A stretch of DNA of 64,000 nt from Acutalibacteraceae bacterium (lineage in GTDB: Bacteria > Bacillota > Clostridia > Oscillospirales > Acutalibacteraceae): NCBI GenBank assembly GCA_045605825.1, contig JAZUQS010000060.1:302-64301 (forward strand), given 5' to 3'. Made by a program: the position numbers and the translations under genes. Below are positions 12,071 through 42,083 of the stretch, piece by piece; position 1 is the stretch's first letter, and each line of letters opens with the position of its first letter. The notes under the pieces were generated by a model. The model was given only the letters and a program-made list of their open reading frames with translations, was not told where the DNA came from and did not search any database.

Positions 12071-12274
12071 ATTTCAACCTCCATTTTTGAAGCTTTTATG
12101 ATTAGTTAAATTATAATTTGAAAAAATATAACTGTCAAGAAAAGAGCGTTGAATAAAAAAGTTATTTCAACCAATAATTTTTTGAGAAATATTTTTTTTC
12201 GGTTTACAAATTATTTTACGTGTGATAATATAGTAAAGTATGCACTTATGGATTCACGAAAGGAGGGTTTTACA

Positions 12275-14179: not shown

Positions 14180-14249
14180 TCTATTCGTAGTAAAATATGT
14201 ATAGGTATATCTTAAATTTGGATTGACGGTATATCGGAAAGGTGATTTT

Positions 14250-19320: not shown

Positions 19321-19363
19321 AAAAACAAAAAAGCCTGTAAACCCTTATATATCAAGGGATTAC
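19321..19363 (-). terminator. Rho-independent terminator of the hddC-gmhB fusion gene
   Basis: On the minus strand: GTAATCCCTT-GATATAT-AAGGGTTTAC (one mismatch), followed by AGGCTTTTTTGTTTTT. The stem overlaps the TAA stop at 19360-19362. Confidence 0.65.
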
Positions 19364-20619
19364 AAGCTTTCTGAAAACTCTTTTAACGATGAAAAAATTT
19401 GTGTTTTTTCGGGTAGATTTGCATTAGCTTTTTTACCTAAAAAAACGGGAATGCAGCCGGCGTTTATGCCTGCTTCAACGTCTCTTAAAGAGTCACCGAC
19501 CATATACGATTTTTCTAAATCAATATTGAAATCCTTTTGTGCTTTAAAGAGAAGTCCCGGTGCGGGCTTTCTGCAATCGCACTTAATTTTTAATTCTTTT
19601 ATTTCGTCAGGGAAGCCTGAATCAGGATGGTGAGGGCAGTAGTAAATACCGTCAATAAACGCTCCGTTTTCACCTAAAAGAGTTTCAATTCTGTTGTGAA
19701 TTCCGGTGAGTGCTTCGATAGTACATTCACCGCGGGCAACAACGGGCTGATTAGTTGCAATAATTACTAAAAAGCCTAAAGAATGAAGCTTGTTTATAGC
19801 CTCGCAAACGCCGTCGATTAGCTCTATTTCGCAAGGCTTTGTGATGTACCCCTTATGAATGTTTACTGTCCCGTCGCGGTCAAGAAAAACAGCTTTTTGA
19901 GGTTGCTTTTTGTGTTTTTTTGAAACTACACCGTTTTTTATGTCGTTTTCAACGGCTTTCAGCCTGTCGGGAGTGCCCATATCCTTAACGTATTCAAAGG
20001 TTTTATAAGAGTAAATTTTACCTGTTTTTATTGCGGGTGTAATAACCTCTTTGTCTAAATCGGCTTTGCCGTCAAAGCTATACATTTCAAGCAACTTAGG
20101 CGATATTATTCCTACCCCTGCGTTGCATAAATTAGGGTACGCAAAAGGTTTGTTTTCCTTAGGTAAAACACCCGTTATTACGTCACCGTCAGTTAAAAAC
20201 AAGGTGCTGTCAAAGGGGTGATTGTTTGGGTGCGTAAGAAGGGTTGCGAGGGCATTTTTTCCTTTGTGAAATGATAGCATTTCGGAGAGAGAAAAGTTAA
20301 AAATCAAGTCACCGTTACATAGTAAAAAATCCTCGTTTAAGCCTAATTTAAAAAGGGCTCCTGCAGTGCCCAAGGGCTCGTTTTCAACGTAGTATGAAAT
20401 ACTTACGCCAAGGCTTTTTCCGTCATCGAAATAAGCCTTGATTTGTTCGCTTAAATGACCTAAAACGAGAATGAATTCAGTAATTCCCTCGGTTTTTAAA
20501 GCATTAATTTGGTGCTCTAAAACGGGTTTTTCGCATAATTTTATTAATGGCTTCGGCGTGTTTTCGCAAACGTTTTTAAGACGTGTTCCCAAACCGCCGG
20601 CTAAAATAACAGCTTTCAT
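19360..20619 (-). CDS. Fusion protein: sugar-1-phosphate nucleotidyltransferase (HddC-like) plus D,D-heptose 1,7-bisphosphate phosphatase (GmhB-like)
   Basis: Start set to ATG 20619 (AAAGGTGG upstream). N-terminal half has MKAVILAGGLGTRL. C-terminal half has the HAD-IIIA motifs FLDRDGTVN, ATNQP and GDSLRD, plus the GmhB-type Zn loop YCPHHP...CDCRKP. Confidence 0.8.
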   Translation of the reverse strand: MKAVILAGGLGTRLKNVCENTPKPLIKLCEKPVLEHQINALKTEGITEFILVLGHLSEQIKAYFDDGKSLGVSISYYVENEPLGTAGALFKLGLNEDFLLCNGDLIFNFSLSEMLSFHKGKNALATLLTHPNNHPFDSTLFLTDGDVITGVLPKENKPFAYPNLCNAGVGIISPKLLEMYSFDGKADLDKEVITPAIKTGKIYSYKTFEYVKDMGTPDRLKAVENDIKNGVVSKKHKKQPQKAVFLDRDGTVNIHKGYITKPCEIELIDGVCEAINKLHSLGFLVIIATNQPVVARGECTIEALTGIHNRIETLLGENGAFIDGIYYCPHHPDSGFPDEIKELKIKCDCRKPAPGLLFKAQKDFNIDLEKSYMVGDSLRDVEAGINAGCIPVFLGKKANANLPEKTQIFSSLKEFSESL

Positions 20620-20706
20620 ACTACACCACCTTTCGAGGCTAATTGTAGCACAAATTTTTCCCTTTTTCAACGGTGGCTTTCCAAGTCTTTCAATGGTGCG
20701 TTTTCC

Positions 20707-20735
20707 TTGACAAAGTATGGTATCTATGATAGAAT
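20707..20735 (+). promoter_or_regulatory. Sigma-70-type promoter of the 12-gene glycan operon
   Basis: TTGACA (20707-20712), 17-nt spacer, TAGAAT (20730-20735). It lies in the divergent intergenic region and no other terminator is seen before 34626. Confidence 0.6.
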
Positions 20736-20819
20736 TCTATATTGGTAATATATGATATATAATAAACATATTATATGCAAATTTTGTCTATAAAGATAAA
20801 TTTGAACGGAGGGTTATCT

Positions 20820-21755
20820 GTGTCAAATATTTTAGTTACGGGTGGAGCAGGTTATATAGGCTCTGTAATGGTGCCCGAGCTTCTTAAGCTTGGCCACAAC
20901 GTTACTGTTTTAGACTCTTTTTTATATAAACAAGCCTCTTTGCTTGATTGCTGTAAATACGATAGCTTTGAAATAATTAAGGGTGATTGCCGTGACGAAG
21001 AAAATCTTAAAAAAGCAATGGATAATAAAGATTTTATTTTCCCTCTTGCAGCTCTCGTAGGCTTCCCTGTATGCGATCAGGATAAAATTGCAGCCCGAAC
21101 AACAAACCTGGGTGCAGTTGAAACTCTCTTGTCACTTCGCGAAAAAGGTCAAAAAATAATTTTCCCTTGTACAAATAGCGGCTACGGCTTAGGTCAGGGT
21201 CAGAATTACTGCACAGAGGAATCACCCATAACCCCCATATCACTTTACGGCAAAACTAAAATGGCAGCTGAAAAGGCAATTCTTGATTCGGGTGAATCCG
21301 TGGCGTTCAGGTTTGCAACTCTTTTCGGTGCTTCGCCTAGAATGAGGCTGGATTTACTTGTAAACGATTTCGTTTACCGTGCGGTGTTTGACCGCTCACT
21401 TATAGTTTTCGAGGGCCACTTTATGAGAAATTATCTTCACGTAAGAGATGCGGCAAATGCATTTATCTTTGCAATGGATAATTTCGAAAAAATGAAAGGG
21501 CAGACCTATAACTGCGGTTTAAGTGATGCAAACCTTTCAAAGTTAGAGCTTTGCGAAAGAATTAAGGCACAGCTTCCAAAATTTGAATACCTTGAAGCAC
21601 CTATCGGCGTTGACCCCGATAAACGTAATTATCTCGTTTCTAACGAAAAAATTGAGAGCTTCGGCTTTAAGCCCTCGTATTCAATCGACGATGGTATTAA
21701 AGAGCTTATAAAGGCCTACTCGATTATTAAAAATTCTTTTTACGGAAATGTGTGA
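20820..21755 (+). CDS. NAD-dependent sugar epimerase/dehydratase (extended SDR)
   Basis: GTG start at 20820 with GGAGG 7 nt upstream. Rossmann motif VTGGAGYIGS. Catalytic YGKTKMAAE (YxxxK). 311 aa. Confidence 0.8.
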   Translation: MSNILVTGGAGYIGSVMVPELLKLGHNVTVLDSFLYKQASLLDCCKYDSFEIIKGDCRDEENLKKAMDNKDFIFPLAALVGFPVCDQDKIAARTTNLGAVETLLSLREKGQKIIFPCTNSGYGLGQGQNYCTEESPITPISLYGKTKMAAEKAILDSGESVAFRFATLFGASPRMRLDLLVNDFVYRAVFDRSLIVFEGHFMRNYLHVRDAANAFIFAMDNFEKMKGQTYNCGLSDANLSKLELCERIKAQLPKFEYLEAPIGVDPDKRNYLVSNEKIESFGFKPSYSIDDGIKELIKAYSIIKNSFYGNV

Positions 21756-21760
21756 AATAA

Positions 21761-22126
21761 ATGAAGCTTGTTGAAATTTTAAAACCCGATTTCGTACATG
21801 AGGACGAAAGGGGGATTCTTTCTCAGATTACCCATACACCCTACGGTCAGGTGAATTCAGTCTTTACTAAAAAAGGTGCTATAAGAGGAAGATATCATTA
21901 CCACAAAACAACAAAAGAGATTTTTTACATCATTACGGGTGAAATAAAAGTATCGCTTTCTCTTGACGGTGCTTCAGAAGAGCATATTTTCAAAACAGGG
22001 GATATGTTTTTAGTGCCGGAATACGTGCGTCATAACTTTGATTTCCAAGAGGATACATATCTCGTTTCCTTTTACACCTCTTGCGTTGAGCTTCCCGACG
22101 GCACAATGGATATAGTAAGCGATTAG
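21761..22126 (+). CDS. Small cupin-fold protein (WbuC / CapF C-terminal-domain-like, possible sugar epimerase accessory)
   Basis: 121 aa. Cupin His-containing strands (RGRYHYHKTTKEIFYIITGE ... VPEYVRHNF). Position directly after an SDR mirrors the split CapF-type arrangement. The function is an inference. Confidence 0.5.
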   Translation: MKLVEILKPDFVHEDERGILSQITHTPYGQVNSVFTKKGAIRGRYHYHKTTKEIFYIITGEIKVSLSLDGASEEHIFKTGDMFLVPEYVRHNFDFQEDTYLVSFYTSCVELPDGTMDIVSD

Positions 22127-22144: not shown

Positions 22145-24064
22145 ATGAAAAAGAACGTGTATTTAATACAACCTACCTATATGAATGCATCTGTTGTGCA
22201 TCTTCCTTACGCAATTGGTGCTTTAGCTTCGTATGCCTGGAAATTTCAGGATATTTGCGATAGCTATGATTTAAAGGGTATTTTCTTTTTGAGAGATAAG
22301 CTTTCAGATATCGTAGAAAAGTTAGACAATCCCTTTTTAATCGGCTTTTCAAACTACATCTGGAACTTTGAATATAACAAAAAATTAGCCGAAGAGGTTA
22401 AAAAAGCCTACCCCGAATGTATTATCGTTTTCGGCGGTCCTCAGATATCTGAGGATTCAGGGCTTTTTGAAGAATGTCCTTTTATTGATTTTCTTATGTA
22501 CTACGAGGGTGAGGTACCCTTCCGTGATTTATTAAGAGCTTACGACGGCAAGCTTCAGTTAAATGAGGTAAGCAACATAGCCTACCGCTTACCCGACGGC
22601 TCAATTAACACAACGGAATTTAAGGCAGCTGAAATATCAGATTTCCCGTCACCCTACGAAAGCGGATTTTTTGACAGAATTATTGAAGAAAATCCCGATA
22701 TAGATTTTATACCTCTCATCGAAACAAACAGAGGTTGCCCTAATAAATGTGCATATTGCAGCTGGGGTAAAATAAAAACCCGTGTGCGTATGTTCCCCCT
22801 TGAAAGAGTTTTTGCGGATATTGAGTGGGTAAGTAAGCACAATAAAGAGTTTTTAGGCTTTGCCGATGCAAACTTCGGTCTTTTCCCCCGTGATGAAAAG
22901 ATTGTTGATAAAATAATTGAGTGTTATCACGAAACGGGTTATCCTAAAAAATTCCAAGTATCCTATTCAAAAGAAACGGGCGACAGAGTTTTTAACATTA
23001 CTAAAAAGCTTAACGAGCACGGTATGGATAAAGGCGTTACCCTTTCTTTCCAGTCAATGTCGAAAATTGTTCAGGAAAATATCGGTAGATCTAATATGGA
23101 TGTTGAATATTACAAAGCCTTGTTGCAGAAATATTCAGAAGCGAAAATTCCTACTTATACAGACCTTATTTTAGGTCTTCCCGGTGAAACTCTTGAAAGC
23201 TTTAAGGACGGTATTGACGAATTGCTTGAGCACGGTCAGCATACTTCTCTTTTCGTGCATTTGTGCGAATGGTTGCCGTTAGCCGAAATGGGCAAAAAGG
23301 AATATATGGACAAGCACGGAATCGGCTTTAGTAAAGTTCCTTTGAACCAACCTCACAGAAGCTCTTCTGATGAAAACGACGTTCAGGAATTTTCAAGAAT
23401 TGTTACCTCAACTTCAACAATGGATGAAAACGAGTGGAAGGCTATGGTAATGTTTTCAACCTGTGCTTTATGCTTTCATCATTTAGGTCTTCTTCAGCTT
23501 GTTGCTTTATATCTGCATTATGAAAAAGGCGTAAAATACAGCGATTTTTATAGCGACCTGCTTTCTCATCTTTTAACTGAAGAAAATATCGGTGAGGCTT
23601 TCATAAGAGTTAAAAAGCAAACTGACGACGTTATAGAGAAAAATGAGTCGGTAGTTGTTTTTGACAGGATGTTTGGCGATATAGCCTGGCCTTTTGAAGA
23701 ATATGCTTTCTTAAAAACAGTTTCAAAGAAGGATGCCTTCTACGAAAATATTGAAAGCTTTTTAGAAAAATATATCGACGATGAAAAGCTTCGCAAGGAT
23801 TTAGTACGTTATCAGAATTTCGTTGTGAAGGATATCAACGTTTCCGAAAAGCTTTTTGAGGGAGAGTACGATTGGAAAAATTATTTTCAGTCAATTCTCG
23901 TTGATGATATTCATCCCGTGCTTGAAAAAAGAAACGTGTGTTACTCGGTAAAGGATGAAAGAGTTACTCATTCCTGGCCCGAATATGCCGAAAAGGTTTT
24001 ATGGTTCGGCAGACGAGGCGGTAAGAATATCTACACTTCGGAAATCACAGAAGAAAAAATATAA
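22145..24064 (+). CDS. Cobalamin-binding-domain (class B) radical SAM enzyme, paralog 1
   Basis: 639 aa. N-terminal Rossmann-like segment (IIVFGGPQIS), ETNRGCPNKCAYCSWG (CX3CX2C), LILGLPGET, and a long C-terminal extension ending in LWFGRRGG. Confidence 0.85.
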   Translation: MKKNVYLIQPTYMNASVVHLPYAIGALASYAWKFQDICDSYDLKGIFFLRDKLSDIVEKLDNPFLIGFSNYIWNFEYNKKLAEEVKKAYPECIIVFGGPQISEDSGLFEECPFIDFLMYYEGEVPFRDLLRAYDGKLQLNEVSNIAYRLPDGSINTTEFKAAEISDFPSPYESGFFDRIIEENPDIDFIPLIETNRGCPNKCAYCSWGKIKTRVRMFPLERVFADIEWVSKHNKEFLGFADANFGLFPRDEKIVDKIIECYHETGYPKKFQVSYSKETGDRVFNITKKLNEHGMDKGVTLSFQSMSKIVQENIGRSNMDVEYYKALLQKYSEAKIPTYTDLILGLPGETLESFKDGIDELLEHGQHTSLFVHLCEWLPLAEMGKKEYMDKHGIGFSKVPLNQPHRSSSDENDVQEFSRIVTSTSTMDENEWKAMVMFSTCALCFHHLGLLQLVALYLHYEKGVKYSDFYSDLLSHLLTEENIGEAFIRVKKQTDDVIEKNESVVVFDRMFGDIAWPFEEYAFLKTVSKKDAFYENIESFLEKYIDDEKLRKDLVRYQNFVVKDINVSEKLFEGEYDWKNYFQSILVDDIHPVLEKRNVCYSVKDERVTHSWPEYAEKVLWFGRRGGKNIYTSEITEEKI

Positions 24065-24072
24065 GAGGTTGT

Positions 24073-24789
24073 ATGGAAAACAATTATTCTTTATCTGTTG
24101 CATTCTGTACCATTAACGAATCAAGCTCTCTTATAAGTGCTTACGAAAAGGTTAAGGGCTGTAGCTGTGCAGACGAGTATCTTTTTATCGTTGCAAAAAG
24201 TGCTACTGAGGAATGTAAAAAAACAGTTGAAATGCTTTGCGAAAATGAAAAATGCAGATTCGTTTTTCAAGACGGCTACGGCTTGGGCAATGCAATAAGA
24301 AAGTCCTTTGACGAGGTAAAGGGTACTCACCTTATTTTATGGCCTGCCGACGACGATATGGATATTAATGCACTTCCCGAAATGGCAAAGCTTTCAAAAA
24401 TGAACCCTGAAAAAATTGTTACCGTGAGCCGTTGGAAAGCTGATAAAGGCTTTGAGGGCTACGGTAAAATAAGAACGGTTATAAATTATATTTCTCAAAA
24501 GGCGTTTGCGATTCTTTTTAAATCAGATTTAACTGATTTCACTAACCCTACGCAGATTGCCCCCGTGAGCGTTTACAGAAAAATAAAATGGCAGGGTAAC
24601 GACTTCGACTTCATGCCTGAAATGATTTTCAAGCCCTTAAAAATCGGTTGCGAATTTATAGAGGTGCCCTGCAAAAGTATTCCGAGAAAAGACGGAAAAA
24701 CAAACAGCAGCTTTAAGAAGTTTGCCAAATATTATCCGGTGATTTTTAAAATATATAAAATGAAGCCGGAAGACGTAATGAAGGTGTAA
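24073..24789 (+). CDS. Small soluble family-2 glycosyltransferase (polyprenyl-phosphate sugar synthase-like: DPM1/GtrB/ArnC size class)
   Basis: 238 aa with no TM segment. GT-A-like N-terminus (SVAFCTINES) and acidic motif WPADDDMD. Intercalated between rSAM paralogs 1 and 2 with 8-nt and 2-nt gaps. Confidence 0.6.
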   Translation: MENNYSLSVAFCTINESSSLISAYEKVKGCSCADEYLFIVAKSATEECKKTVEMLCENEKCRFVFQDGYGLGNAIRKSFDEVKGTHLILWPADDDMDINALPEMAKLSKMNPEKIVTVSRWKADKGFEGYGKIRTVINYISQKAFAILFKSDLTDFTNPTQIAPVSVYRKIKWQGNDFDFMPEMIFKPLKIGCEFIEVPCKSIPRKDGKTNSSFKKFAKYYPVIFKIYKMKPEDVMKV

Positions 24790-24791
24790 AA

Positions 24792-26717
24792 ATGAAACGA
24801 GTGTATTTTATACAAGCAAACCTTTCCTATGGTAAGGCTTATTATCTTCCATATGCAACGGGTTGCCTGGCTGCATATGCATGGCAATTTGAAAGTATAA
24901 ATACAGAATATGAAATAGCAGAATTTATATTCAAGAGAGACCCCGTAGAAAAGGTTATGGCAGAGTTAAAAGAGCCGTCGGTTGTTGCTTTTTCCTGCTA
25001 CACCTGGACCTTTGAGTATAATAAAACACTCGCAAAAAGAATAAAAGAAAAATATCCCGATTGTCTTATAATCTTCGGCGGTCACAGTATCTCTGAAAAC
25101 GTTGACGTTTTTCCTGAGCTTCCCTTTGTTGACGTACTTATGTACGGCGAGGGCGAAAGAGATTTTAAATCTTTGTTAGAGCAGTTTAACACAGAAGAAA
25201 AGGATTTTTCTGGAATCCCAAATATCGCTTACAGAAAAGACGGTAAAATTTTCACCGCCGAAAGAAAATTCTACGATAATTTAGATGGCTTTGTTTCGCC
25301 TTATCTTGAGGGTTATTTTGATAAAATAGTAGAAGCAAATCCCGAGCAGGAATTTTGTGCGGTAATTGAAACAAACAGAGGTTGCCCCTATAACTGTGCT
25401 TACTGCGATTGGTGTTATACGGTTGATATCCGTCAATTTCCTATAGACAAGGTCAAGGAAGAAATCGTTTGGTGCAGTAAAAACAGAGTTGAATATATTT
25501 TCTGTGCCGATTCAAACTTCGGTATTTTAAAACGCGACCTTGATATTGCAAAATTTGTTGTAGAGGTAAAAAAAGAGAGAGGCTATCCGCATATTTTCAA
25601 TAACTGCTTTGCTAAAAACAGTAACGATACGGTTTTTGAAATTTCAAAGCTCTTTTACGATAACAGACTTAATAAAGCAGCAACCCTCGCTTATCAGACT
25701 GTTTGCGATGAGGCTCTTAAAAACGTAAACCGTAAAAACTTTACAATGGAAGCTTTTTCGGATTTAGTTACTAAATATAACGAGCACAATATCCCCACCT
25801 ATACGGAAATGATTTTAGGTCTTCCGGGAGAAACCTACGATAGCTTCTGCGACGGTCTTTGCAGGCTTATCGAGGCAGGTCAGCAAACTGCCCTTACTGT
25901 TTACTATTGCCAAGTTTACCCCAACTCACTTATGGGTAAAAAAGAATACCGTGATTTACACGGTATTGAAACGGCAAAGGTGCCCCTTAACTATTTACAT
26001 TCAACAATGCCTGAGGAAGAGGATATTACAGAGTATACCGAGCTTATAGTTGCAACCCGTGATATGCCCTTTGAGGATATGATGAAATCGATTATGTTCT
26101 GCACTTGCTTACAGTGCTTCCACCATATCGGTCTTTTAAAATATTTCTCAATTTACGTAAGGCATGAGCTTAATATAAGCTACCTTGAATTTTACAAACG
26201 CTTGCTTGATTTTATTTTCAAATCTGAAAACACCTTCTTAAACGAATTGTTTAACAGATTTAAAGAGCAGTGCAGCGACTTCTCAAACGGTGAATGGTCC
26301 TATTACAACGAAAAATTTGGTGATATAGGCTGGTTCCTTGAGGAAGGTGCATATATGGAAATAGTTGCAAACTACGAAACCTTCTGGAAAGAAATCATAC
26401 CTTTCCTTAAAGAATTTGATATTGCACCTGAAATTTTCGATGAATTAACAAAATTCCAGAAATTTGTTATCCGCCTTCCCGAGCAAGAAAAAATATCCTG
26501 CGAATTTGAATATGATTTTTACAATTACTTCCACAATGCTCTTTCGCAGAGCTATAAGCCTTTAGAGGCAAAGAAAAATAAAATTGAGGTTGATTTACCT
26601 AACCCCGTTTACAATTGGAAGGATTATGCACGAAAAATCGTTCTCTTTGCAAAAAGAAGAGGCGATACAATCGTAATTAACGATAAAAAGTATCTTACAG
26701 TAACTTACGGAGAGTAA
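24792..26717 (+). CDS. Cobalamin-binding-domain (class B) radical SAM enzyme, paralog 2
   Basis: 641 aa. LIIFGGHSIS, ETNRGCPYNCAYCDWC, MILGLPGETY, and C-terminal VLFAKRRGD. Confidence 0.85.
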   Translation: MKRVYFIQANLSYGKAYYLPYATGCLAAYAWQFESINTEYEIAEFIFKRDPVEKVMAELKEPSVVAFSCYTWTFEYNKTLAKRIKEKYPDCLIIFGGHSISENVDVFPELPFVDVLMYGEGERDFKSLLEQFNTEEKDFSGIPNIAYRKDGKIFTAERKFYDNLDGFVSPYLEGYFDKIVEANPEQEFCAVIETNRGCPYNCAYCDWCYTVDIRQFPIDKVKEEIVWCSKNRVEYIFCADSNFGILKRDLDIAKFVVEVKKERGYPHIFNNCFAKNSNDTVFEISKLFYDNRLNKAATLAYQTVCDEALKNVNRKNFTMEAFSDLVTKYNEHNIPTYTEMILGLPGETYDSFCDGLCRLIEAGQQTALTVYYCQVYPNSLMGKKEYRDLHGIETAKVPLNYLHSTMPEEEDITEYTELIVATRDMPFEDMMKSIMFCTCLQCFHHIGLLKYFSIYVRHELNISYLEFYKRLLDFIFKSENTFLNELFNRFKEQCSDFSNGEWSYYNEKFGDIGWFLEEGAYMEIVANYETFWKEIIPFLKEFDIAPEIFDELTKFQKFVIRLPEQEKISCEFEYDFYNYFHNALSQSYKPLEAKKNKIEVDLPNPVYNWKDYARKIVLFAKRRGDTIVINDKKYLTVTYGE

Positions 26718-26720
26718 CCA

Positions 26721-28649
26721 ATGAAAAATGTTTATTTTGTTCAAGCTAATAACGTTTACGGCACAGAGGTAAAGAATACTTATATTCCTTACTCTGTAGG
26801 CTGTATTCAGGCTTACTGTCAGAAAAACGAAATTATTTCTGCAGAATACAAATTCGGTAAATTTATATATACAAGAGAAGCACCTGAAAAGGTTATTGAA
26901 ATGCTTGACAATCCCTTTATGGTTTTATTTTCTTGCTCTGTATGGAATACCGAGTATAACAAAACCGTTGCAAAGGCAATTAAAGAGGCTTACCCATCTT
27001 GCCTTATAACCTTTGGCGGTCATAACGTTTCAAATAATGAAAACTATTTAAGAGATAATGATTTTATAGATTTTCTTACTCACCGTTTCGGTGAAGAGCC
27101 TACCGAGGGCATTCTTGAAAGCCTTGCAACAGGAAAATCTCTTGATGAAATCCCAAATATCTCATACAGAAACGAAGCAGGCGAAATAGTTACAACTGCT
27201 TACGCACCGCAGACGGGCACAGATTATCCATCACCTTATTTAGAGGGCACCTTTGATGAGATTTTAAAGGACGATATCGTTTTCTCTGCTCTTTTTGAAA
27301 CGAACAGAGGTTGCCCTAACTCTTGCTCATTCTGTGACTGGGGCTCTTTGAAATCAAAGGTAAGGCTTTTCCCAATGGAAAGAGTTTTTGCGGAAATTGA
27401 TTGGTTTGTTGAGCATAAAATCGAGTTCGTTTTCTGTACCGACGGTAACTTCTGCCTTTTCAACCGTGACGAAGAAATTGCAGATTATATCGTTCACTGT
27501 AAAAATACCTACGGTTATCCGAAAATGTTCCGTGTATGCTTTACAAAAAATAAATTCGATTTCGTATTCGATATAGGCACAAAGTTCTTCAAAAACGGTC
27601 TTGATAAGGCTCAGACGCTTTCATTCCAGAGTATGAACGAGCAGGTTTTAAAGAACGTCGGAAGAAAGAATATTTCAACCGAAAAATTCAGAGAGCTTAT
27701 GCTCAAATATAACGAAATCAATATTTCAACCTTTTCAGAGCTTATTTTAGGTCTTCCCGGTGAAACCTACGAAACCTTCTGCGAGGGTGTAAATATCTTA
27801 ATTGAAAACGGTCAGCATTATGCTATAAATATTTATCCCTGCGAACTGCTTCCCAATGCTGAAATGGGTCAGAAGGCTTATCAGGAAAAATTCGGCATTA
27901 AAAGCACAAGAGTACCGTTTAAGCTTATTCACTCAAACGAAGGTCAGAAAAAAGACGACATAGTTGAGTATTCTGAATATATAACCTCAACTGATGCTAT
28001 GAGCGAAGAGGAATGGGCAAAATCCCTTCTTTTTGCGTCATATATTCAAGGCCTTCACAATTTGGGTCTTCTTCGTGCCATTGCTATTTACTATAGACAC
28101 GAGCATAATTTGAGCTATAACGATTTCTATAACAAGCTTTTAAGCTATTCAAAAGAAAATAAAGGAACTCTTCTAAATACGGTTTACGAGAGAATCAGTA
28201 AGCTTTGCCTTGGTATAATAAGCGGTTCAAACGAGCTTGTTGCAACCTGCGAGGGCCTCGGCGACGTGCTTTGGGGCTTTGATGAGCTTATTTTCCTTGA
28301 GTTTTACAAAAATCTTGAGGTATTCTATAAAGAGGTAAAGGAATGCTTCAAGGGTATTGATGAAAACAATGACGTTGTTGACGCCTTGTTTAAATATCAG
28401 CTTGATATTATAAAGAAAATCGGTGTGGAGCATCCCGTTATTTCAAGTGAATATGATTTCTATTCATATTTCAATAATATCTTCCTCGGCGGTTATAAAA
28501 AGTTAATTAAGAATAAAACTACAATAGCTGTTGAAGACGGTGTTGTTGTAAAGGATATACACGAGTTTGCCCGTGAAATCGTATGGTACGGCAGAAACAG
28601 ACGTGCTACCGATTACACAAGCACAAACTATAAGGTTACAAAAGCATAA
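26721..28649 (+). CDS. Cobalamin-binding-domain (class B) radical SAM enzyme, paralog 3
   Basis: 642 aa. LITFGGHNVS, ETNRGCPNSCSFCDWG, LILGLPGETY, and C-terminal VWYGRNRR. Confidence 0.85.
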   Translation: MKNVYFVQANNVYGTEVKNTYIPYSVGCIQAYCQKNEIISAEYKFGKFIYTREAPEKVIEMLDNPFMVLFSCSVWNTEYNKTVAKAIKEAYPSCLITFGGHNVSNNENYLRDNDFIDFLTHRFGEEPTEGILESLATGKSLDEIPNISYRNEAGEIVTTAYAPQTGTDYPSPYLEGTFDEILKDDIVFSALFETNRGCPNSCSFCDWGSLKSKVRLFPMERVFAEIDWFVEHKIEFVFCTDGNFCLFNRDEEIADYIVHCKNTYGYPKMFRVCFTKNKFDFVFDIGTKFFKNGLDKAQTLSFQSMNEQVLKNVGRKNISTEKFRELMLKYNEINISTFSELILGLPGETYETFCEGVNILIENGQHYAINIYPCELLPNAEMGQKAYQEKFGIKSTRVPFKLIHSNEGQKKDDIVEYSEYITSTDAMSEEEWAKSLLFASYIQGLHNLGLLRAIAIYYRHEHNLSYNDFYNKLLSYSKENKGTLLNTVYERISKLCLGIISGSNELVATCEGLGDVLWGFDELIFLEFYKNLEVFYKEVKECFKGIDENNDVVDALFKYQLDIIKKIGVEHPVISSEYDFYSYFNNIFLGGYKKLIKNKTTIAVEDGVVVKDIHEFAREIVWYGRNRRATDYTSTNYKVTKA

Positions 28650-28697
28650 TATAATGCACAGTTAAAAATACAAATAAAAAACACTTCGGGGTAATTT

Positions 28698-30605
28698 ATG
28701 AAAAACATTTATTTTGTTCAGGTTGGGTTCGAATTTGACGGCTCGGTTTACCTTCCGTATGCTGTAGGCACAATAATTGCCTATTGCAAAAAAGAACCGC
28801 AAATAACAAGTGAATACAGCTTTTCAGATATCATTTTCAAAAGAGAAAAGTTGGCAGATGCTATAGCGAAAATAAAGGAGCCTTATATGGTTGCTTTCTC
28901 CTGCAGTGTCTGGAATATTGAGTACAATAAAACTCTTGCAAAAATGATAAAAGAAAAATACCCTCAGTGTTTAATTTCCTTTGGTGGTCACAGCGTTGAC
29001 GAAAGCGGTGTTCTTATTGAAAGTGAGGATTATATTGATATTCTTACTTTCGGCGAGGGCGAAAGAACCTTTTCCGATTTACTCATAAACCTTAAAAATG
29101 ATGAAATAGGCTTAACAAATAACATTTCATACAGAAAAGGCGACAGTATTATTAAAACCGAGAGAAGCTACTGTGTATCTCTTGAGGATTTCCCGTCACC
29201 CTATACAACCGGCGTGTTTGATGATATTGTTAAAAACAGTCAAGGGTTGGAATTGCTTTCTGTTCTTGAAACTACAAGAGGCTGTCCTTATTCCTGTGCA
29301 TACTGCGATTGGTGTGCGGGTAAGAAAATGCGATTTTTCCCGATGGAAAAGGTAATAGCCGAAATCAAATGGCTTTCAGAGAATAAAATAACCTATTGCT
29401 TCTGTGCTGACTCAAACTTCGGTATGTTTGACAGAGATATCGAAATAGCCCAGCATCTTATTGAAGCAAAAAAGAAAAACGGCTATCCCGAGGTTTTCAG
29501 ACCTTGTTACGAGAAAAACAGCGACGAAAGAGTGTTTAAAATTTGCAGTGCCTTGAATAGTGTAGGTATGGACAAGGGTGCTACAATGGCATATCAGACT
29601 CTTTCAGAGGAAGCCTTGAAAAACATAGGTAGAAAAAATCTTACAATGGAGCATTTTTCTAACCTTATGAAAAAATATAACGAAGCAGGAATTCCTACTT
29701 ACTCCGAGTTGATTTTAGGGCTTCCCGGTGAAACGAAGGAAAGCTTCTGCATGGGTATATGTAAGCTTCTTGAAAACGGTCAGCATAATTCAGTCAGCGT
29801 TTATCACTGTGAGGTTTTGCCTAATTCAGAGCTTGCCCAACCCGAGTACATTAAAAAGCACAAGATAGAAACGATAAAGGTTGCCTTTAACCATATTCAC
29901 AGTGCACCTAAAAAGGATGAAGAGGTTAAAGAGTATTCGTATATCGTTCGCTCAACAGCTACTCTTGACCGTGACGATTGGGTATACGCAAACCTATTTT
30001 CAATTTGTTTGCAATGTTTCCATAGTTTAGGCGTGCTTCGTTATTTTGCTATGTATCTTCATTCTTTGGGTGAGGTTACTTATTACGATTTTTACACAGC
30101 TTTATTGAACTACATTTTCGAAAGCGACGGAAAGCTTAATAAAATGTGGACTCTCTTTAAAGAGAAATATGAAAATTCTCTTTCAGGTAATTGGAATTAC
30201 TACGACGAAAAATTCGGTAACGTAACCTGGTTTTTCGAAGAGGGTGCATTTATTGAAATTGCATCAAATTACAATGAATATTTGGAAGAATTACTTGTAT
30301 TTCTTAAAAAATACGATTTTCCTGAAGACGTTTTCAGCGAGCTTTTAAAATATCAAAAGCTTCTTTTGAAAAAGCCCTTTGAAAAGGGTGCAACTGAAGA
30401 ATTCAGTTATGATTTCTATAGCTTCTTTGACGGTATTATAAAAGGTCAGGAAAAGACTTTAGAAAAACAGAAAACAAAAATAAAGGTTACGCCAAAAAAT
30501 ATTTATGATGAAGTTTCACGTTATGCAAAAGAGGTCGTTTGGTTTGGAAGACGCAGAGGTGCAACTATCTACGGTAATGACGAGGTAACCTGCGAAACAG
30601 TTTAA
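28698..30605 (+). CDS. Cobalamin-binding-domain (class B) radical SAM enzyme, paralog 4
   Basis: 635 aa. LISFGGHSVD, ETTRGCPYSCAYCDWC, LILGLPGETK, and C-terminal VWFGRRRG. Confidence 0.85.
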   Translation: MKNIYFVQVGFEFDGSVYLPYAVGTIIAYCKKEPQITSEYSFSDIIFKREKLADAIAKIKEPYMVAFSCSVWNIEYNKTLAKMIKEKYPQCLISFGGHSVDESGVLIESEDYIDILTFGEGERTFSDLLINLKNDEIGLTNNISYRKGDSIIKTERSYCVSLEDFPSPYTTGVFDDIVKNSQGLELLSVLETTRGCPYSCAYCDWCAGKKMRFFPMEKVIAEIKWLSENKITYCFCADSNFGMFDRDIEIAQHLIEAKKKNGYPEVFRPCYEKNSDERVFKICSALNSVGMDKGATMAYQTLSEEALKNIGRKNLTMEHFSNLMKKYNEAGIPTYSELILGLPGETKESFCMGICKLLENGQHNSVSVYHCEVLPNSELAQPEYIKKHKIETIKVAFNHIHSAPKKDEEVKEYSYIVRSTATLDRDDWVYANLFSICLQCFHSLGVLRYFAMYLHSLGEVTYYDFYTALLNYIFESDGKLNKMWTLFKEKYENSLSGNWNYYDEKFGNVTWFFEEGAFIEIASNYNEYLEELLVFLKKYDFPEDVFSELLKYQKLLLKKPFEKGATEEFSYDFYSFFDGIIKGQEKTLEKQKTKIKVTPKNIYDEVSRYAKEVVWFGRRRGATIYGNDEVTCETV

Positions 30606-30617
30606 ATCAGATTTGGG

Positions 30618-31877
30618 GTGAGGACGATAAAAAGCATAAAAACCTTTACCAATAAGCATTATTACGGGCTTTGTCTGTTTGCATTTTTATTTATATATTG
30701 TATAGTTGTCCCCACCGAGGGTAGACCGTGGATTGTTAATGACGCAACCTATAGCTTTTATGCAATAGATTTCAGTGTAGGCTTTTGCTCAAGAGTTATT
30801 CAGGGCGCGTTGTACAACCTTATTTTCAGAACCCCCGACCATATAACCGTTTCAATTTATCTTATCGGTGTTTTTGTCATCACCTTTGGTGCTGTAAGCT
30901 TTTTAGCTGAAAAGTTCATTAAAAACACTGATGCTCAATACAGAAAATCGGCAATTATAATTACGTTGTTTTTCCTTACAGGTCCCGCAACCTTTGCGGT
31001 GTTAGTACCCGTTTTTGGAATGATAGATGTTTTCTGGGTTTTTGCTACGGCTTTAAGTATACTTTGCTTGCAAAACAAGAAGGTGTATTTTCTTGTTGTT
31101 CCGTTAGCGGTATTTATGGTGTTTGTTTATTACGGTGCAACTCTTTGCTACGTTCCGCTTTTAGCAATTATGTTGCTTTATAAGATATCGGTAACAGAGG
31201 AAAGAAAAGAAAAACGTTATCTTACTGCAATATTCTTTGCAACGGTTGCTCTCACAATTTTCTTTACCGTGTATTTCGTAGTTTTTGAGCGTTCAAACCT
31301 TACTATGACTATGGAAGAATTTGATAAGTTCCTTGTTGGCAGGGGCGTTAGCGAGGGTGATTTGTATTATTACAACTTCAGCTACTACCGTGATATAGAT
31401 GGTTTTGAGGAAAACGGTTTCCTTGAGGTTCCCGAGTTTGATGCAGGATCTTCACCCTCCGAGGTAGTCAAGGTTCTTTTCCAGCAGGCTTGGATTTCAA
31501 TTTTCGTAAAAGAATTTACCTACGTTACATTTATAGTTGCGCTTTTAATTTTACCTATTCTCGTATTTATTTATAAATTCCTTATAACCTTTTTCAAGAA
31601 AGCAAAGGGTAACAACGTGAAAAGATTTTCATTGTTGTGTGCTATGGCACTTTTTCCCTTTGTAGTTGTAGCAGGCTTTTGCTTCTCAACTGACGTTGTA
31701 AGGTGGATAGGAAACGCATTTTTACCCACTTTTGCATTGTTTATGTATATACTCTATAAGGAAAGAGCTTGGGCAATAGAGCTCGTTCACAATTCTTTGA
31801 CTTCCATCGGCGCAACAACTCTCATACCTTATTATTTAGTTTATTCTTTAACGGTATTCCTGCCCGATTTAAGTTGA
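30618..31877 (+). CDS. Polytopic membrane protein of unknown family (about 10 TM; candidate GT-C-like transferase or polymerase)
   Basis: 419 aa, hydrophobic throughout, with one ~65-aa acidic/aromatic loop (MTMEEFDKFLVGRGVSEGDLYYYNFSYYRDIDGFEENGF...). GTG start 12 nt after, and in frame with, the rSAM-4 stop. No clear SD, which suggests translational coupling. Confidence 0.6.
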   Translation: MRTIKSIKTFTNKHYYGLCLFAFLFIYCIVVPTEGRPWIVNDATYSFYAIDFSVGFCSRVIQGALYNLIFRTPDHITVSIYLIGVFVITFGAVSFLAEKFIKNTDAQYRKSAIIITLFFLTGPATFAVLVPVFGMIDVFWVFATALSILCLQNKKVYFLVVPLAVFMVFVYYGATLCYVPLLAIMLLYKISVTEERKEKRYLTAIFFATVALTIFFTVYFVVFERSNLTMTMEEFDKFLVGRGVSEGDLYYYNFSYYRDIDGFEENGFLEVPEFDAGSSPSEVVKVLFQQAWISIFVKEFTYVTFIVALLILPILVFIYKFLITFFKKAKGNNVKRFSLLCAMALFPFVVVAGFCFSTDVVRWIGNAFLPTFALFMYILYKERAWAIELVHNSLTSIGATTLIPYYLVYSLTVFLPDLS

Positions 31878-31907
31878 TGAAAATCCGTATTTTTAGGGGG
31901 AAATGAA

Positions 31908-32699
31908 ATGAAAGCTAAAACAATTAAATTAACTTTCTGGTTTTTGTTTATAACGTTTATCAGATTTTTCCCTCAGTTAGAGTTACTTATTGAGGTGGAA
32001 TATTATATTTATCTTACGGCTATTCTTGTAAGTGCTTTATGTATTTGCCTTATACCTAAAAGAATTGTTGGCGGTATCATTGGTGTTTTAATAACCGTCG
32101 GTGTTTCGGTTTACAGTCCTGAGTATTTCCTTTTTGCACTTCCCGTGGTGTTGCTTATTTATGCCCATGGTGAAATCGTTTCTTGGAGCAATAAGCTTAA
32201 CGAAACTGAAAGCAGTGAGGTTAAGGCGAAAAGCAAAAAGAAAAACAAAGCTAAAAACCAAAAGAAAGATATAAAAGATTTTATCAGCTGTATAATTTGC
32301 GGTGTAGCGGTTGTGTGTAGCGGTTTGCAGTTTGTGTTTTTAGATACGGACCGCCCAAGAGAGCATAAAGACACAATTGGTGATTACGGATATATAATGT
32401 TTTATGCCTTGTTCTTAATCGCATTGATTGTAGTAGCTTTTGCAATAAAATCAACAAACAAAAAGCCGATAAACTCACAAATGAGCTTACAGTATAAAGT
32501 TTTTTATATTGCTTCTTTCGTTTGCTTAGCTTTGCAGGTTGTGTCAATATATTTAAGTGCTCAGACATCAACAATTACAAATAGGGTCGAGTTTCATTAT
32601 TGGTTTTTATTTGTAATAGCAATTATTTTAAATAAAGATTTTTATCTTGATGAATTGATAAATAAATTCACTCTGTCATCAATGAAAGACAGAGGGTAA
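31908..32699 (+). CDS. Polytopic membrane protein of unknown family with a Lys-rich loop
   Basis: 263 aa. AGGGGGA RBS. About 6-7 TM segments. Central loop SSEVKAKSKKKNKAKNQKKDIKD. Confidence 0.55.
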   Translation: MKAKTIKLTFWFLFITFIRFFPQLELLIEVEYYIYLTAILVSALCICLIPKRIVGGIIGVLITVGVSVYSPEYFLFALPVVLLIYAHGEIVSWSNKLNETESSEVKAKSKKKNKAKNQKKDIKDFISCIICGVAVVCSGLQFVFLDTDRPREHKDTIGDYGYIMFYALFLIALIVVAFAIKSTNKKPINSQMSLQYKVFYIASFVCLALQVVSIYLSAQTSTITNRVEFHYWFLFVIAIILNKDFYLDELINKFTLSSMKDRG

Positions 32700-32762
32700 A
32701 CAGATAAATAGGGGATAATACGGGCAAAGCGGTGAGCCCATTCTGTAGGTTGTGGTGAAGAA

Positions 32763-33644
32763 ATGATATTGATAGTCGGTTGTGGCTTTTTAGGAAGTTA
32801 CCTTTTAAAGCATATACTGAATGAAACAAATGAAGCCGTTATTGCAACGGTAAGAAATACAGAAAAAATCCCCCGTGTAGACGGAGCAAAGCTTATAGAA
32901 TGTGATATTTCAAGCGAAGAGGATTTAAAAAGTCTTGCAGATGCTTTCAAGGGTGAAGAATTAAAGGTGTTTTACTTTGCCGCTTGTCACAATATTGATT
33001 TTCTATACGAAAACATTGAAAAGGGCAAAGAAATAAATATCACCGCCTTAAAAAACTTTATTTCTTATATACCTAATATAAAAGAATTCTATTTTGCATC
33101 TACGGATTGCGTTTACGGTGAAGGTGAAAATAAAGATTACCGATTTAAAGAAACAGATGCTTTAATTCCTATAAACGAATACGGCAAACAAAAAGCCGAG
33201 GCAGAAAAAATAGTGATTGAAAACGGTTTTACTGTTTTAAGATTACCTTTTATGTTAGGCAAGTCACTTTCTTCAACGCCCCATTTTTACGACAAAATTA
33301 CCGCCTCATTAAAAAATAATGAAGAGGTTGAAATGATTGACGGAATGTACCGTTCTGTGTTAAGCTATTCTCAAGCGGCAGAGCTTATATATTCTTTGTC
33401 GCTTTTAAAAGAGAAGCCTCAGGTTATAAACGTCTGCTCAGATGAGTCTTTGAGTAAATACGATATGGGCTGTATTCTGGCAGAAAAGCTTGGTGCTGAT
33501 AAGAGTTTAATAAAAAAGATTTCCGAAGACGAGGGTAAGAAATTTTTTAAGGATAAAAGAGTTTCTTTCGGTGCTATGGATAACTCGGTTCTTAAAGCTT
33601 TACTTAATAAAGAAAAAATTACGTGGGAGGTAGAAAAATGCTGA
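32763..33644 (+). CDS. NAD(P)-dependent sugar reductase/epimerase (RmlD-size SDR)
   Basis: 293 aa. Rossmann motif ILIVGCGFLGSY. Catalytic YGKQKAEAE (YxxxK). Confidence 0.7.
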   Translation: MILIVGCGFLGSYLLKHILNETNEAVIATVRNTEKIPRVDGAKLIECDISSEEDLKSLADAFKGEELKVFYFAACHNIDFLYENIEKGKEINITALKNFISYIPNIKEFYFASTDCVYGEGENKDYRFKETDALIPINEYGKQKAEAEKIVIENGFTVLRLPFMLGKSLSSTPHFYDKITASLKNNEEVEMIDGMYRSVLSYSQAAELIYSLSLLKEKPQVINVCSDESLSKYDMGCILAEKLGADKSLIKKISEDEGKKFFKDKRVSFGAMDNSVLKALLNKEKITWEVEKC

Positions 33645-34615
33645 TTACAAGAACACCGTTCAGAGTTTCTTTTTTCGGTGGCGGAACAGATTATTATGAA
33701 TATTTTTCTGAATTCGGCGGCAGTGTGCTTTCCACAACTATTGATAAATATTGTTATCTTACAATACGTAAGCTTCCACCGTTTTTTGAGCATAAAAATC
33801 AGCTTACATATTCGAAAATTGAAAGATTTAATGAAACTGATGAAATTCAGCATCCTCTTGTAAGAGCGGCTCTTGAGTATATGCCTACTGACCGTATTCA
33901 GATTTCCTACGATGCAGATTTACCTGCAGGATCAGGTATAGGCTCAAGCTCATCCTTTGCGGTTGGTCTTCTTCAAAGTCTTCACGCTCTTAAAGACGAG
34001 TACCCCGATAAAATGGTGCTTGCAAAGGAAGCGATACACCTTGAAAGAGTAATGTGTAACGAGGGTGGTGGCGTTCAGGATCAGGTTGCCGCAGCCTTCG
34101 GCGGTCTTAACCGTATTGACTTTACAAAAGACGGTTATACAGTTACACCCGTTGAAATATCAAAGGAAAGACTTGATGAATTTCAAAGCAATTTAATTCT
34201 CTTGTTTACGGGCTTTACAAGGTATTCGGGAATTATTGCAACAGAGCAACAAAAAGGTATTCCATCAACCCTTAATCAGCTACACGAAATGAAAGCCCTT
34301 GTTGATAAAGCAGAGGATATATTAAAAAACGGAAACCTTGACGATTTCGGCAGACTACTTGACCACACGTGGCAGTTAAAACGCTCTTTATCCGATTATA
34401 TAAGTAATTCGGAAATTGACGAAATGTATCAAAAAGCAAAGGCTAACGGAGCATTGGGCGGTAAAATTCTCGGTGCAGGCGGTGGCGGCTTTATGCTTTT
34501 ATACGTGCCGAAGGAAAGCCAAGCCAAGCTTATTGAAAGCTTCAGCGATTTAAAAATTATTCCCTTTAAATTCGAAAACGAGGGGACAAAAATCATCGTG
34601 CAAAACGATACGTAA
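33638..34615 (+). CDS. GHMP-family sugar kinase, D-glycero-D-manno-heptose 7-phosphate kinase (HddA)-like
   Basis: Start set to ATG 33638 (GGGAGG upstream; 7-nt overlap with the preceding stop). MLITRTPFRVSFFGGGTDY N-terminus, GHMP motif LPAGSGIGSSSSF, and C-terminal GAGGGGF. Confidence 0.8.
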   Translation: MLITRTPFRVSFFGGGTDYYEYFSEFGGSVLSTTIDKYCYLTIRKLPPFFEHKNQLTYSKIERFNETDEIQHPLVRAALEYMPTDRIQISYDADLPAGSGIGSSSSFAVGLLQSLHALKDEYPDKMVLAKEAIHLERVMCNEGGGVQDQVAAAFGGLNRIDFTKDGYTVTPVEISKERLDEFQSNLILLFTGFTRYSGIIATEQQKGIPSTLNQLHEMKALVDKAEDILKNGNLDDFGRLLDHTWQLKRSLSDYISNSEIDEMYQKAKANGALGGKILGAGGGGFMLLYVPKESQAKLIESFSDLKIIPFKFENEGTKIIVQNDT

Positions 34616-34625
34616 AGTAAAAATT

Positions 34626-34668
34626 AATGCATCCTGACAAATAATCAGGATGCATTTTTTGTATTTTT
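34626..34668. terminator. Bidirectional rho-independent terminator ending the glycan operon
   Basis: 12-bp perfect stem AATGCATCCTGA / TCAGGATGCATT with loop CAAATAA, then TTTTGTATTTTT. Convergent with the CE15-like gene ending at 34667. Confidence 0.8.
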
Positions 34669-41883: not shown

Positions 41884-42083
41884 AAAAACCACCTTTTAAA
41901 ATGCACATAATAATACAATTATACTATATAAGAAAAATCAAAACAATGAGCTTTTTAAACAAAAGGTTGTTAGTTGGTTTGTGTATTCTATTTGAGAAAA
42001 ACGCGAAACGTGAATATAACGAGAAAAGCACCGCTTACGCGATGCTTTTTTCTGTCTGTACGAATCATTTAGATACCGGTTGC

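Follow-up and report, generated by a model that had tools for sequence, protein, structure and literature searches.

Why should a bacterium set four copies of one radical enzyme almost end to end among genes for the making of a sugar? The question is raised by a contig of an Acutalibacteraceae bacterium (Bacillota; Clostridia; Oscillospirales; GenBank assembly GCA_045605825.1, contig JAZUQS010000060.1), of which a stretch of 64,000 nucleotides (positions 302 to 64,301 of the forward strand) was analysed; this whole stretch is called the window, and all coordinates are given in its numbering. Between positions 22145 and 30605 lie four paralogous radical S-adenosylmethionine (SAM) genes, which an earlier reading made from the letters alone (the sequence-only reading) had taken for cobalamin-dependent enzymes acting on a heptose-derived sugar. 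In Clostridia of animal guts, eighty related loci associate this TokK-like subfamily with the synthesis of nucleotide sugars and with lipid-linked transfer of glycosyl groups. On balance we think it probable that the four enzymes C-methylate, in sequence, a heptose carried on GDP or polyprenyl phosphate, as part of a surface glycosylation module resembling the Gtr and Arn systems.

Four enzymes of the TokK and CysS clade

Judged by sequence, the products of the four genes are class B radical SAM enzymes, which depend on cobalamin, and belong with TokK, ThnK, CysS and KedN5 in one clade; the earlier placement beside the iterative methylases TokK/ThnK and CysS is borne out by profile and Protein Data Bank (PDB) matches alike. 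A profile of the four paralogs, run against PDB sequences, finds TokK with E 6.5e-130 (positions 4-585 onto TokK 12-612) and CysS with E 1.3e-74, the next match being OxsB at 3.5e-7; paralog 2 alone reaches TokK with E 7e-97 (residues 3-584) and CysS with E 7e-54. The best NCBIfam model for all four is KedN5, of the methylcobalamin-dependent C-methyltransferases (NF033712). Models of HpnJ and BchE match weakly, and those typical of ribosomally synthesised and post-translationally modified peptides (RiPPs) score far below both KedN5 and TokK. The database names of these proteins are generic.

The Pfam domains expected by the sequence-only reading were found in part. Radical_SAM (PF04055) is present in all four paralogs at 36-60 bits, and B12-binding (PF02310) exceeds its cut-off of 32.1 bits in paralogs 1, 2 and 4 (36.0, 34.1 and 32.8) and falls below it in paralog 3 (20.1); all four align with the cobalamin (Cbl) domain of TokK from residue 3-4. 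DUF4080/PF13311, considered for the C-terminal extension of about 250 residues, is not among the matches at E<=0.01. The extension aligns instead with TokK's own C-terminal domain, termed distinct to TokK (TokK paper), and because the alignment reaches that domain we read it as a substrate-binding domain of the TokK type.

The four open reading frames (ORFs), of 635-642 residues, are intact and can be aligned end to end, as had been claimed of their shared architecture. Pairwise identity is 38-45% over the whole proteins, and by domain 38-46% in the Cbl, 42-50% in the radical SAM and 28-39% in the C-terminal part, the C-terminal third being the least conserved portion. Three of the motifs first picked out by eye hold in all four paralogs: (I/L)xFGG(P/H), with its first residue at 93-96, ET(N/T)RGCPxxCxxC(S/D)W(G/C), with its first residue at 191-193, and (L/M)ILGLPGET. 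The fourth, a C-terminal (W/L)(F/Y)(G/A)(R/K)(R/N)R, stands in paralogs 2-4 and fails at the last position of paralog 1, which reads WFGRRG; across 238 homologs its W is found in 225, its G in 217, and its two R/K positions in 232 and 190. The genes are separated by gaps of 8, 2, 3 and 48 nt (2-48 nt in the earlier account), with one small glycosyltransferase (GT2, 238 residues) intercalated between paralogs 1 and 2.

This is an old family within one operon. The count of 52 identical residues among the first 100 of paralogs 2 and 4 proved exact, and the old duplication inferred from it is supported: in other species every paralog is matched by orthologs of its own at 50-87% identity, against 38-45% between the paralogs themselves, so that the duplications predate these species.

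Functional residues of TokK, with roles taken from the TokK and CysS papers, were mapped onto the four paralogs and 238 near-full-length relatives. Those that serve catalysis are kept. The cysteine triad of the Fe-S cluster is present in every paralog and in 238/238 relatives, as is Trp76 (CysS W75) beneath the cobalt, and Trp215 of the active site is found in all four and in 237 of 238. Those that touch the substrate differ. Arg280, which binds the substrate carboxylate in TokK, has its counterparts in Table 1 and is variable among the relatives, and Leu383, which lines the pocket and is the active-site leucine that tunes the number of methylations in TokK, is replaced by Cys in all four paralogs (Cys374 in paralog 1). 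The substrate anchors R280, N515 and Y652 of TokK are not kept as a set, N515 falling in a gap and the Y652 region remaining without alignment, as would be expected were the substrate a different one. The W(Y/F)G(R/K)(R/K) tail, in the last ~55 residues, has no detectable counterpart in TokK; a PDB search with the last 84 residues, tried as a means of placing it, gave chance matches only.

The residue at the R280 position is fixed within each orthogroup (Q in 10/10, N in 8/10, R in 6/9 and R in 23/23 for paralogs 1-4) and co-varies with the type of sugar activation encoded nearby. The most conserved orthogroup is that of paralog 4, to which all 23 of the last count belong as orthologs at >=50% identity.

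Recurrence of the module in gut Clostridia

The scan covered one genome per GTDB species and found more than 561 relatives, of which the best 80 loci, each of up to 22 kb, were analysed. These come from metagenome-assembled genomes (MAGs) of animal guts, belonging to Acutalibacteraceae, Oscillospiraceae or unclassified Clostridia, and hold 307 radical SAM ORFs in 97 clusters at 60% identity. A locus carries one to six TokK-like genes: three in 32 loci, four in 17, five in 5 and six in 3. Recurrent partners, found by de novo clustering of all neighbours, are the small GT2 (50/80 loci), the family of a 419-residue membrane protein (24/80), a cupin (19/80), a fusion of HddC and GmhB domains (18/80), a short-chain dehydrogenase/reductase (SDR) of the PDB 6vo6 type (16/80), an HddA-like kinase (15/80), an Fkp-like fucokinase/pyrophosphorylase of 821 residues (12/80), and a D-2-hydroxyacid dehydrogenase and a DedA/VTT protein (8/80 each). 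At least one of GT2, membrane protein and sugar-activation gene is present in 41 of the 46 loci with complete 10-kb flanks. In a Pfam census of 133 further neighbours, sugar-nucleotide enzymes are the only recurrent biosynthetic families; neither there nor among the 80 loci do genes for RiPPs, polyketide synthases (PKS), nonribosomal peptide synthetases (NRPS) or tetrapyrroles recur.

The survey of neighbourhoods for hddA, gmhB and hddC upheld the expected association, with sugar genes linked to the array across species and heptose-type genes in 15-19 loci. Heptose is one of at least two sugar inputs, since 12 loci carry the Fkp-like enzyme instead. The locus is best described not as one for a polysaccharide but as a compact single-sugar module, composed of a GT2 resembling polyprenyl-phosphate glycosyltransferases (PPGTs), a GT-C-like protein and genes of sugar activation and tailoring. 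Two layouts recur: a heptose type, to which the window conforms, and an Fkp type, in which a GT-C-like gene, a polytopic membrane protein, GT2 and Fkp are followed by four radical SAM genes. There is another gene order, in which the ortholog of paralog 4 adjoins the nucleotidyltransferase gene. In one locus (L081) a radical SAM gene and a GT2 gene stand alone as a pair, the rest of the module lying further along the same contig (L012). The D-2-hydroxyacid dehydrogenase, which is not in the window, is found directly upstream of the HddA-like kinase in its 8 loci (L012, L022 and L029 among them) and could recycle 2-hydroxyglutarate to alpha-ketoglutarate for a ping-pong dehydrogenase of the Cj1427 type.

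The family reaches well beyond these loci. In a representative library of 1.84 billion proteins, 2,495 clusters (50% identity) match at E<=1e-30, and at least 150 clusters at that identity outscore TokK against the same profile. Some members are unusual in build. Four of the 148 best representatives (P0325, P0343, P0347 and P0368), and about 20 more, carry an insertion of 130-450 residues in or at CxxxCxxC with the hallmarks of an intein, for example '...GCPYS|CLSENTLINT...NNVLVHN|CTFCDWGS'; the four genes of the window have none. Two others (P0282, 1283 residues, and P0283, 1271 residues) consist of two TokK-like units head to tail, either fused or merged in gene calling.

The constant partner of the array is the small GT2, which is best matched by enzymes that load sugars onto lipid phosphates. 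Its AlphaFold2 (AF2) model (predicted local distance difference test, pLDDT, 91.4) finds ArnC, DPMS and GtrB as the top 13 PDB matches in Foldseek, with E down to 1.6e-11 and TMq 0.64-0.81, and the family profile run against the PDB has DPMS as its best match (E 9.1e-11), with ArnC also found. The best NCBIfam matches, AglJ and a dolichyl-phosphate hexose transferase, are both weak, and a single-sequence phmmer search of the PDB gave no match, so that these matches emerged only with the family profile and the fold search. Four cysteines of this protein (C12, C48, C56 and C61) are near-invariant across 50 family members, which is unusual for GT2; they may bind a metal or serve in redox chemistry alongside the radical SAM enzymes.

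Downstream of the array, the 419-residue protein has ~9-10 transmembrane (TM) segments, no Pfam or NCBIfam match, and an invariant D51 in the first outer loop of its family. Foldseek with its AF2 model (pLDDT 84.7) returns the C-mannosyltransferase DPY19 (probability 0.99, E 0.13, TMq 0.49) and AftA (probability 0.23); GT-C enzymes are its only high-probability matches. The family profile finds nothing among PDB sequences, and the GT-C lead comes from the fold search. In several mapped loci a Pfam-less protein of 230-390 residues and 7-11 TM segments adjoins the GT-C-like gene. No GtrA/GtcA-type flippase (PF04138) is present among the membrane proteins of the window or the 25 most frequent neighbour families.

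All genes between 20775 and 34615 run in one direction, with gaps of -22 to 63 nt, and lie between a promoter-like site (20707) and a terminator (34626), from which an operon of 11-12 tightly spaced genes is predicted, with one further gene divergent (Table 1). Several of these genes argue for a heptose, as the sequence-only reading had supposed: the phosphatase half of the divergent fusion passes the cut-off of GmhB TIGR00213 (150.6 against 149.6 bits; PRK08942, 169.9 against 178), HddA is the best family for the kinase (E 1.4e-46; 159.5 bits against a cut-off of 600), and the SDR has half its residues in common with 6vo6 (phmmer E 2.9e-101). In one related locus (L011), moreover, the array has a GmhA-like gene as its neighbour. 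The nucleotidyltransferase half of the fusion reaches 98 bits with HddC against a cut-off of 300, and other nucleotidyltransferase models score higher.

Homologs of the SDR across the loci are of 311 residues and 63-84% identical; its true start is probably ~15 codons downstream of 20775, given the length of these homologs, an alignment with 6vo6 that begins at residue 18 and the lack of a ribosome-binding site before 20775. It was also considered as a 4,6-dehydratase of a 6-deoxyheptose route, and this was rejected: dehydratases have T-D-E at a position where the SDR, read by eye, has T-N-S, and its close relative is of the 6vo6 type. The cupin, which adjoins the SDR in mapped loci, has a weak PDB match to the cupin domain of Cap5F, and the RmlD-like SDR has weak PDB matches to dTDP-4-dehydrorhamnose reductases.

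Table 1. Features of the predicted operon and its borders, in window coordinates.
Feature	Coordinates	Strand	Remarks
HddC-like nucleotidyltransferase (N-terminal) and GmhB HAD phosphatase (C-terminal) fusion	19360-20670	-	Pfam NTP_transferase and HAD
Best promoter-like site of the region	20707-20735	+	TTGACA-17-TAGAAT, 11/12, extended TG; consensus match only
SDR, 6vo6-type	20775-21755	+	50.6% identity over 308 residues, gapless, to PDB 6vo6/6vo8
Small cupin, candidate keto-sugar epimerase	21761-22126	+	121 aa; Pfam Cupin_2 and Polysacc_synt_C, CapF C-terminal type
Paralog 1, TokK-like cobalamin radical SAM	22145-24064	+	639 aa, intact ORF; Gln at TokK R280 position
Small soluble GT2, catalytic domain of polyprenyl-phosphate glycosyltransferase type	24073-24789	+	fold and profile matches
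Paralog 2, TokK-like	24792-26717	+	641 aa, intact ORF; Asn at R280 position
Paralog 3, TokK-like	26721-28649	+	642 aa, intact ORF; Arg at R280 position
Paralog 4, TokK-like	28698-30605	+	635 aa, intact ORF; Arg at R280 position
Polytopic membrane protein, ~10 TM, candidate GT-C glycosyltransferase	30618-31877	+	419 aa; fold search
Second polytopic membrane protein, ~7 TM, flippase/accessory candidate	31908-32699	+	263 aa; hydropathy; poorly conserved
RmlD-like SDR, candidate C4 keto-reductase	32763-33644	+	Pfam RmlD_sub_bind and Epimerase
GHMP kinase, HddA-like (heptose 7-phosphate 1-kinase)	33623-34615	+	best NCBIfam family HddA
Bidirectional terminator-like hairpin, operon end	34626-34656	.	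12-13 bp stem, T-run on both strands

Beyond the operon, an Rfam search of the window for a cobalamin riboswitch or other RNA elements gave two tRNAs only. The GC content falls to 0.35-0.36 at 30001-34000, against 0.38-0.41 in the flanks, as would suit a variable surface-glycan module passed on by horizontal exchange. Carbohydrate-active genes abound in the neighbourhood (10445-12070, 34667-35695, 37219-41892 and 58734-61199), among them GH123, a glucuronyl esterase, GH38, and a secreted protein of 1557 residues with Big_3, Flg_new and SASA esterase domains, and fit a gut glycan degrader. Just upstream of the operon are a radical SAM/SPASM enzyme (12149-13669, 506 residues) and then a secreted protein of 1661 residues (14223-19208) without a Pfam or NCBIfam match, neither of which is conserved with the array. 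Large secreted proteins were considered as conserved targets of glycosylation and set aside, for they flank the array in 5-6 loci only and are not homologous to the 1661-residue protein of the window.

A proposed methylated heptose and its alternatives

From homology and gene context we infer the methylation chemistry, the sugar substrate, the order of the steps and the acceptor, as follows. The module would make a nucleotide sugar (in the window GDP-heptose), which the SDR, the cupin and the RmlD-like reductase would re-configure via a 4-keto intermediate. The four paralogs would then C-methylate the GDP-sugar or a polyprenyl-phosphate-linked sugar, each of them at a step or position of its own and perhaps iteratively: by homology, one SAM would methylate cob(I)alamin, while a second would be cleaved at the [4Fe-4S] cluster to yield a 5'-deoxyadenosyl radical, which would take a hydrogen from an sp3 carbon and leave a substrate radical to receive the methyl from methylcobalamin. 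The ArnC/DPMS/GtrB-like GT2 would load the sugar onto polyprenyl phosphate, and the lipid-linked sugar, once flipped, would be transferred by the GT-C-like protein to an extracytoplasmic acceptor. The lipid-linked route is proposed because the GT2 matches ArnC, DPMS and GtrB and the fold matches of the membrane protein are GT-C enzymes. The lone pair of radical SAM and GT2 genes in L081 fits action of the methylases either before or after the GT2. The substrates of TokK and CysS both have a long tail of phosphopantetheine type, and are held in a channel that runs between the Cbl and C-terminal domains (TokK and CysS papers); by analogy, a GDP or polyprenyl-phosphate handle could take the place of that tail.

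A bolder version of this proposal, which we hold tentatively and with less confidence, is that the arrays are assembly lines, in which TokK-like enzymes would each add one to three methyls to a GDP- or polyprenyl-phosphate-linked heptose, or to a fucose-like sugar in the Fkp-type loci, and so lengthen or branch its carbon chain to give octose, nonose or tert-alkyl sugars for display at the surface in the manner of Gtr and Arn. Iterative action is on record for TokK and CysS (TokK and CysS papers). ThnK too acts iteratively, and an activity has been proposed for KedN5.

A number of observations count against C-methylation of a heptose. The four paralogs score 233.7, 263.8, 229.2 and 240.9 bits with the KedN5 model, far below its cut-off of 700; they are related to that subfamily but fall outside it as NCBI defines it. 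The near-invariant Cys at the Leu383 position (230/238) could signal chemistry beyond plain methyl transfer. The co-variation of the R280 position, at which R or K occurs in 51 of 77 genes of heptose-type loci and 2 of 40 of Fkp-type loci, is a count uncorrected for phylogeny. The SDR draws its meaning from PDB 6vo6, which is probably Cj1427, the GDP-heptose C4-dehydrogenase. No SIS-domain protein that might serve as GmhA was found among the ORFs scanned (>=150 residues across the window, >=100 residues within 10-42 kb), and tblastn with an E. coli GmhA sequence found only the gene of L011 (E 6e-23) and a weak match in L075; gmhA may lie elsewhere in the genome. The GT2 lacks a TM helix, unlike ArnC, GtrB and DPMS, and ends in a basic amphipathic helix; in this it resembles eukaryotic DPM1, which needs partner subunits. 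Its next-best fold match is glucosyl-3-phosphoglycerate synthase, with a small-molecule acceptor (E ~1e-8). The GT-C assignment of the modelled 419-residue protein is weak on its fold scores and has no support from sequence. All organisms that bear the locus are uncultured MAGs.

Some of these observations would sit more easily with a soluble acceptor for the GT2, and so with a small-molecule glycoside or secondary metabolite bearing a modified heptose, of the septacidin or aminoglycoside type. All characterised close relatives of the paralogs, TokK, ThnK, CysS and KedN5, come from natural-product pathways. We nonetheless judge a secondary metabolite unlikely, because no scaffold enzyme (PKS, NRPS or cyclase) and no dedicated ABC exporter recurs in the 80 loci, small proteins of the multidrug-export type occur in only 2 of the 133 neighbours, the module includes a conserved, GT-C-like polytopic membrane protein, and the best fold and profile matches of the GT2 itself are lipid-phosphate glycosyltransferases.

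Somewhat less likely still is that some or all paralogs perform chemistry other than methylation, such as epimerisation, ring contraction or rearrangement, after the fashion of OxsB or HpnJ. The family cysteine discussed above is the chief reason to entertain this, since an active-site Cys is the hydrogen donor in other radical SAM enzymes, and HpnJ and BchE do match weakly; but the E-values for TokK and CysS are lower by more than 60 orders of magnitude than those for OxsB, HpnJ and BchE, and the two tryptophans of the methylases, under the cobalt and in the active site, are kept almost without exception.

Methylation might also fall on a lipid, be it the polyprenyl carrier or a membrane lipid, rather than on the sugar, as with the hopanoid methylases HpnP and HpnR. 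The constant partnership with a GT2 of lipid-phosphate type, the isolated pair in L081 and the channel in which TokK and CysS hold long-tailed substrates would all suit such a target. This is improbable, because the residue at a substrate-contact position changes with the kind of sugar activation, genes of sugar tailoring lie interspersed with the array, and no lipid biosynthesis genes recur beside it. Maturation of a RiPP, as by PoyB/PoyC or the bottromycin methylases, is scarcely credible: RiPP clusters often contain class B radical SAM methylases, and the SPASM gene lies 8.5 kb upstream of the array, but that gene has a homolog in only 1 of the 80 loci (L053), no precursor peptide, peptidase or ABC exporter is present within 19.3-34.7 kb (as the sequence-only reading had observed) or recurrent in the 80 loci, the recurrent neighbours are sugar enzymes, and the RiPP-type models trail far behind those of KedN5 and TokK. 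The comparative data weigh against all four alternatives.

Significance and closest known systems

All parts of the module are of known kinds; it is their combination that is new. A literature search found no link of cobalamin-dependent radical SAM enzymes to genes for heptose, polysaccharide or undecaprenyl-linked glycosylation, and to our knowledge nearly all known class B radical SAM methylases belong to pathways for antibiotics, cofactors, lipids or RiPPs. Glycans and nucleotide sugars are absent from a 2026 review of the class B family (PMC12931638). The recurrence of the module in uncultured gut Clostridia points to an undescribed decoration of surface sugars. If C-methylation of a heptose is the right reading, radical C-methylation, possibly iterative, would join the chemistry of bacterial surface glycans, new sugars would be predicted that standard glycan analysis misassigns, and nature would have supplied a set of paralogs, of one fold and different specificities, with which to ask how enzymes of the TokK type set where and how often they methylate. 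Should the arrays be assembly lines as well, they would point to an unknown class of hydrophobic, higher-carbon surface sugars and to a surface trait that is diversifying rapidly across a whole family of gut Clostridia. The heptose hypothesis is directly testable, since enzymatic routes exist to both GDP-heptose and its 4-keto derivative (PMC10680097).

Among single enzymes the nearest relative is TokK (with ThnK; carbapenem C6 alkylation; PDB 7kdx), which shares with the paralogs a three-domain architecture over ~580 aligned residues, the CxxxCxxC motif, W76 and W215. It differs in acting on a pantetheinylated carbapenam from within an antibiotic cluster, where the genes described here form tandem arrays of 3-6 alongside sugar genes, and in two residues, R280 being replaced by Q, N, R and R and L383 by Cys in the paralogs of the window. 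CysS, the second-best structural relative, has the Trp under the cobalt in common with them; its C-terminal domain aligns less well (query 19-476 only) and its substrate is a carrier-linked aminobenzoate. The CysS/KedN5 system is one of iterative methylation, from methoxy to isopropoxy, sec-butoxy and tert-butoxy. Closer in presumed substrate are GenK, GenD1, Fms7 and MoeK5, which methylate unactivated sugar carbons bearing hydroxyl or amine groups, MoeK5 on a sugar linked to lipid-phosphoglycerate. These are single enzymes of antibiotic pathways and are not among the sequence matches obtained here. They are listed as Csp3 methyltransferases (PMC12931638).

For the sugar itself the model is the capsular heptose pathway of C. 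jejuni, in which HddA, GmhB and HddC are followed by the dehydrogenase Cj1427, the epimerase Cj1430 and the reductase Cj1428 (PMC10680097). The window has an HddA-like kinase, a GmhB domain and an HddC-like domain, and its remaining sugar genes follow the same logic of keto intermediate, epimerase and reductase (PMC10680097). It lacks gmhA and the genes of capsule export or polymerisation. Its cupin is a CapF-type protein of 121 residues, whereas Cj1430 is RmlC-like, and it adds four radical SAM enzymes for which we know of no counterpart in C. jejuni.

In overall plan the module is most like the three-component systems GtrA/GtrB/GtrV, ArnC/ArnEF/ArnT and CsbB/GtcA/YfhO, with its PPGT-like GT2, its GT-C-like membrane protein and a second small polytopic protein. 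The resemblance is imperfect, for the GT2 of the window is without TM helices, neither membrane protein matches the GtrA family and the GT-C assignment is weak. It also goes further than they do, since the operon of the window includes its own dedicated genes for sugar synthesis and, set among them, the four radical SAM genes.

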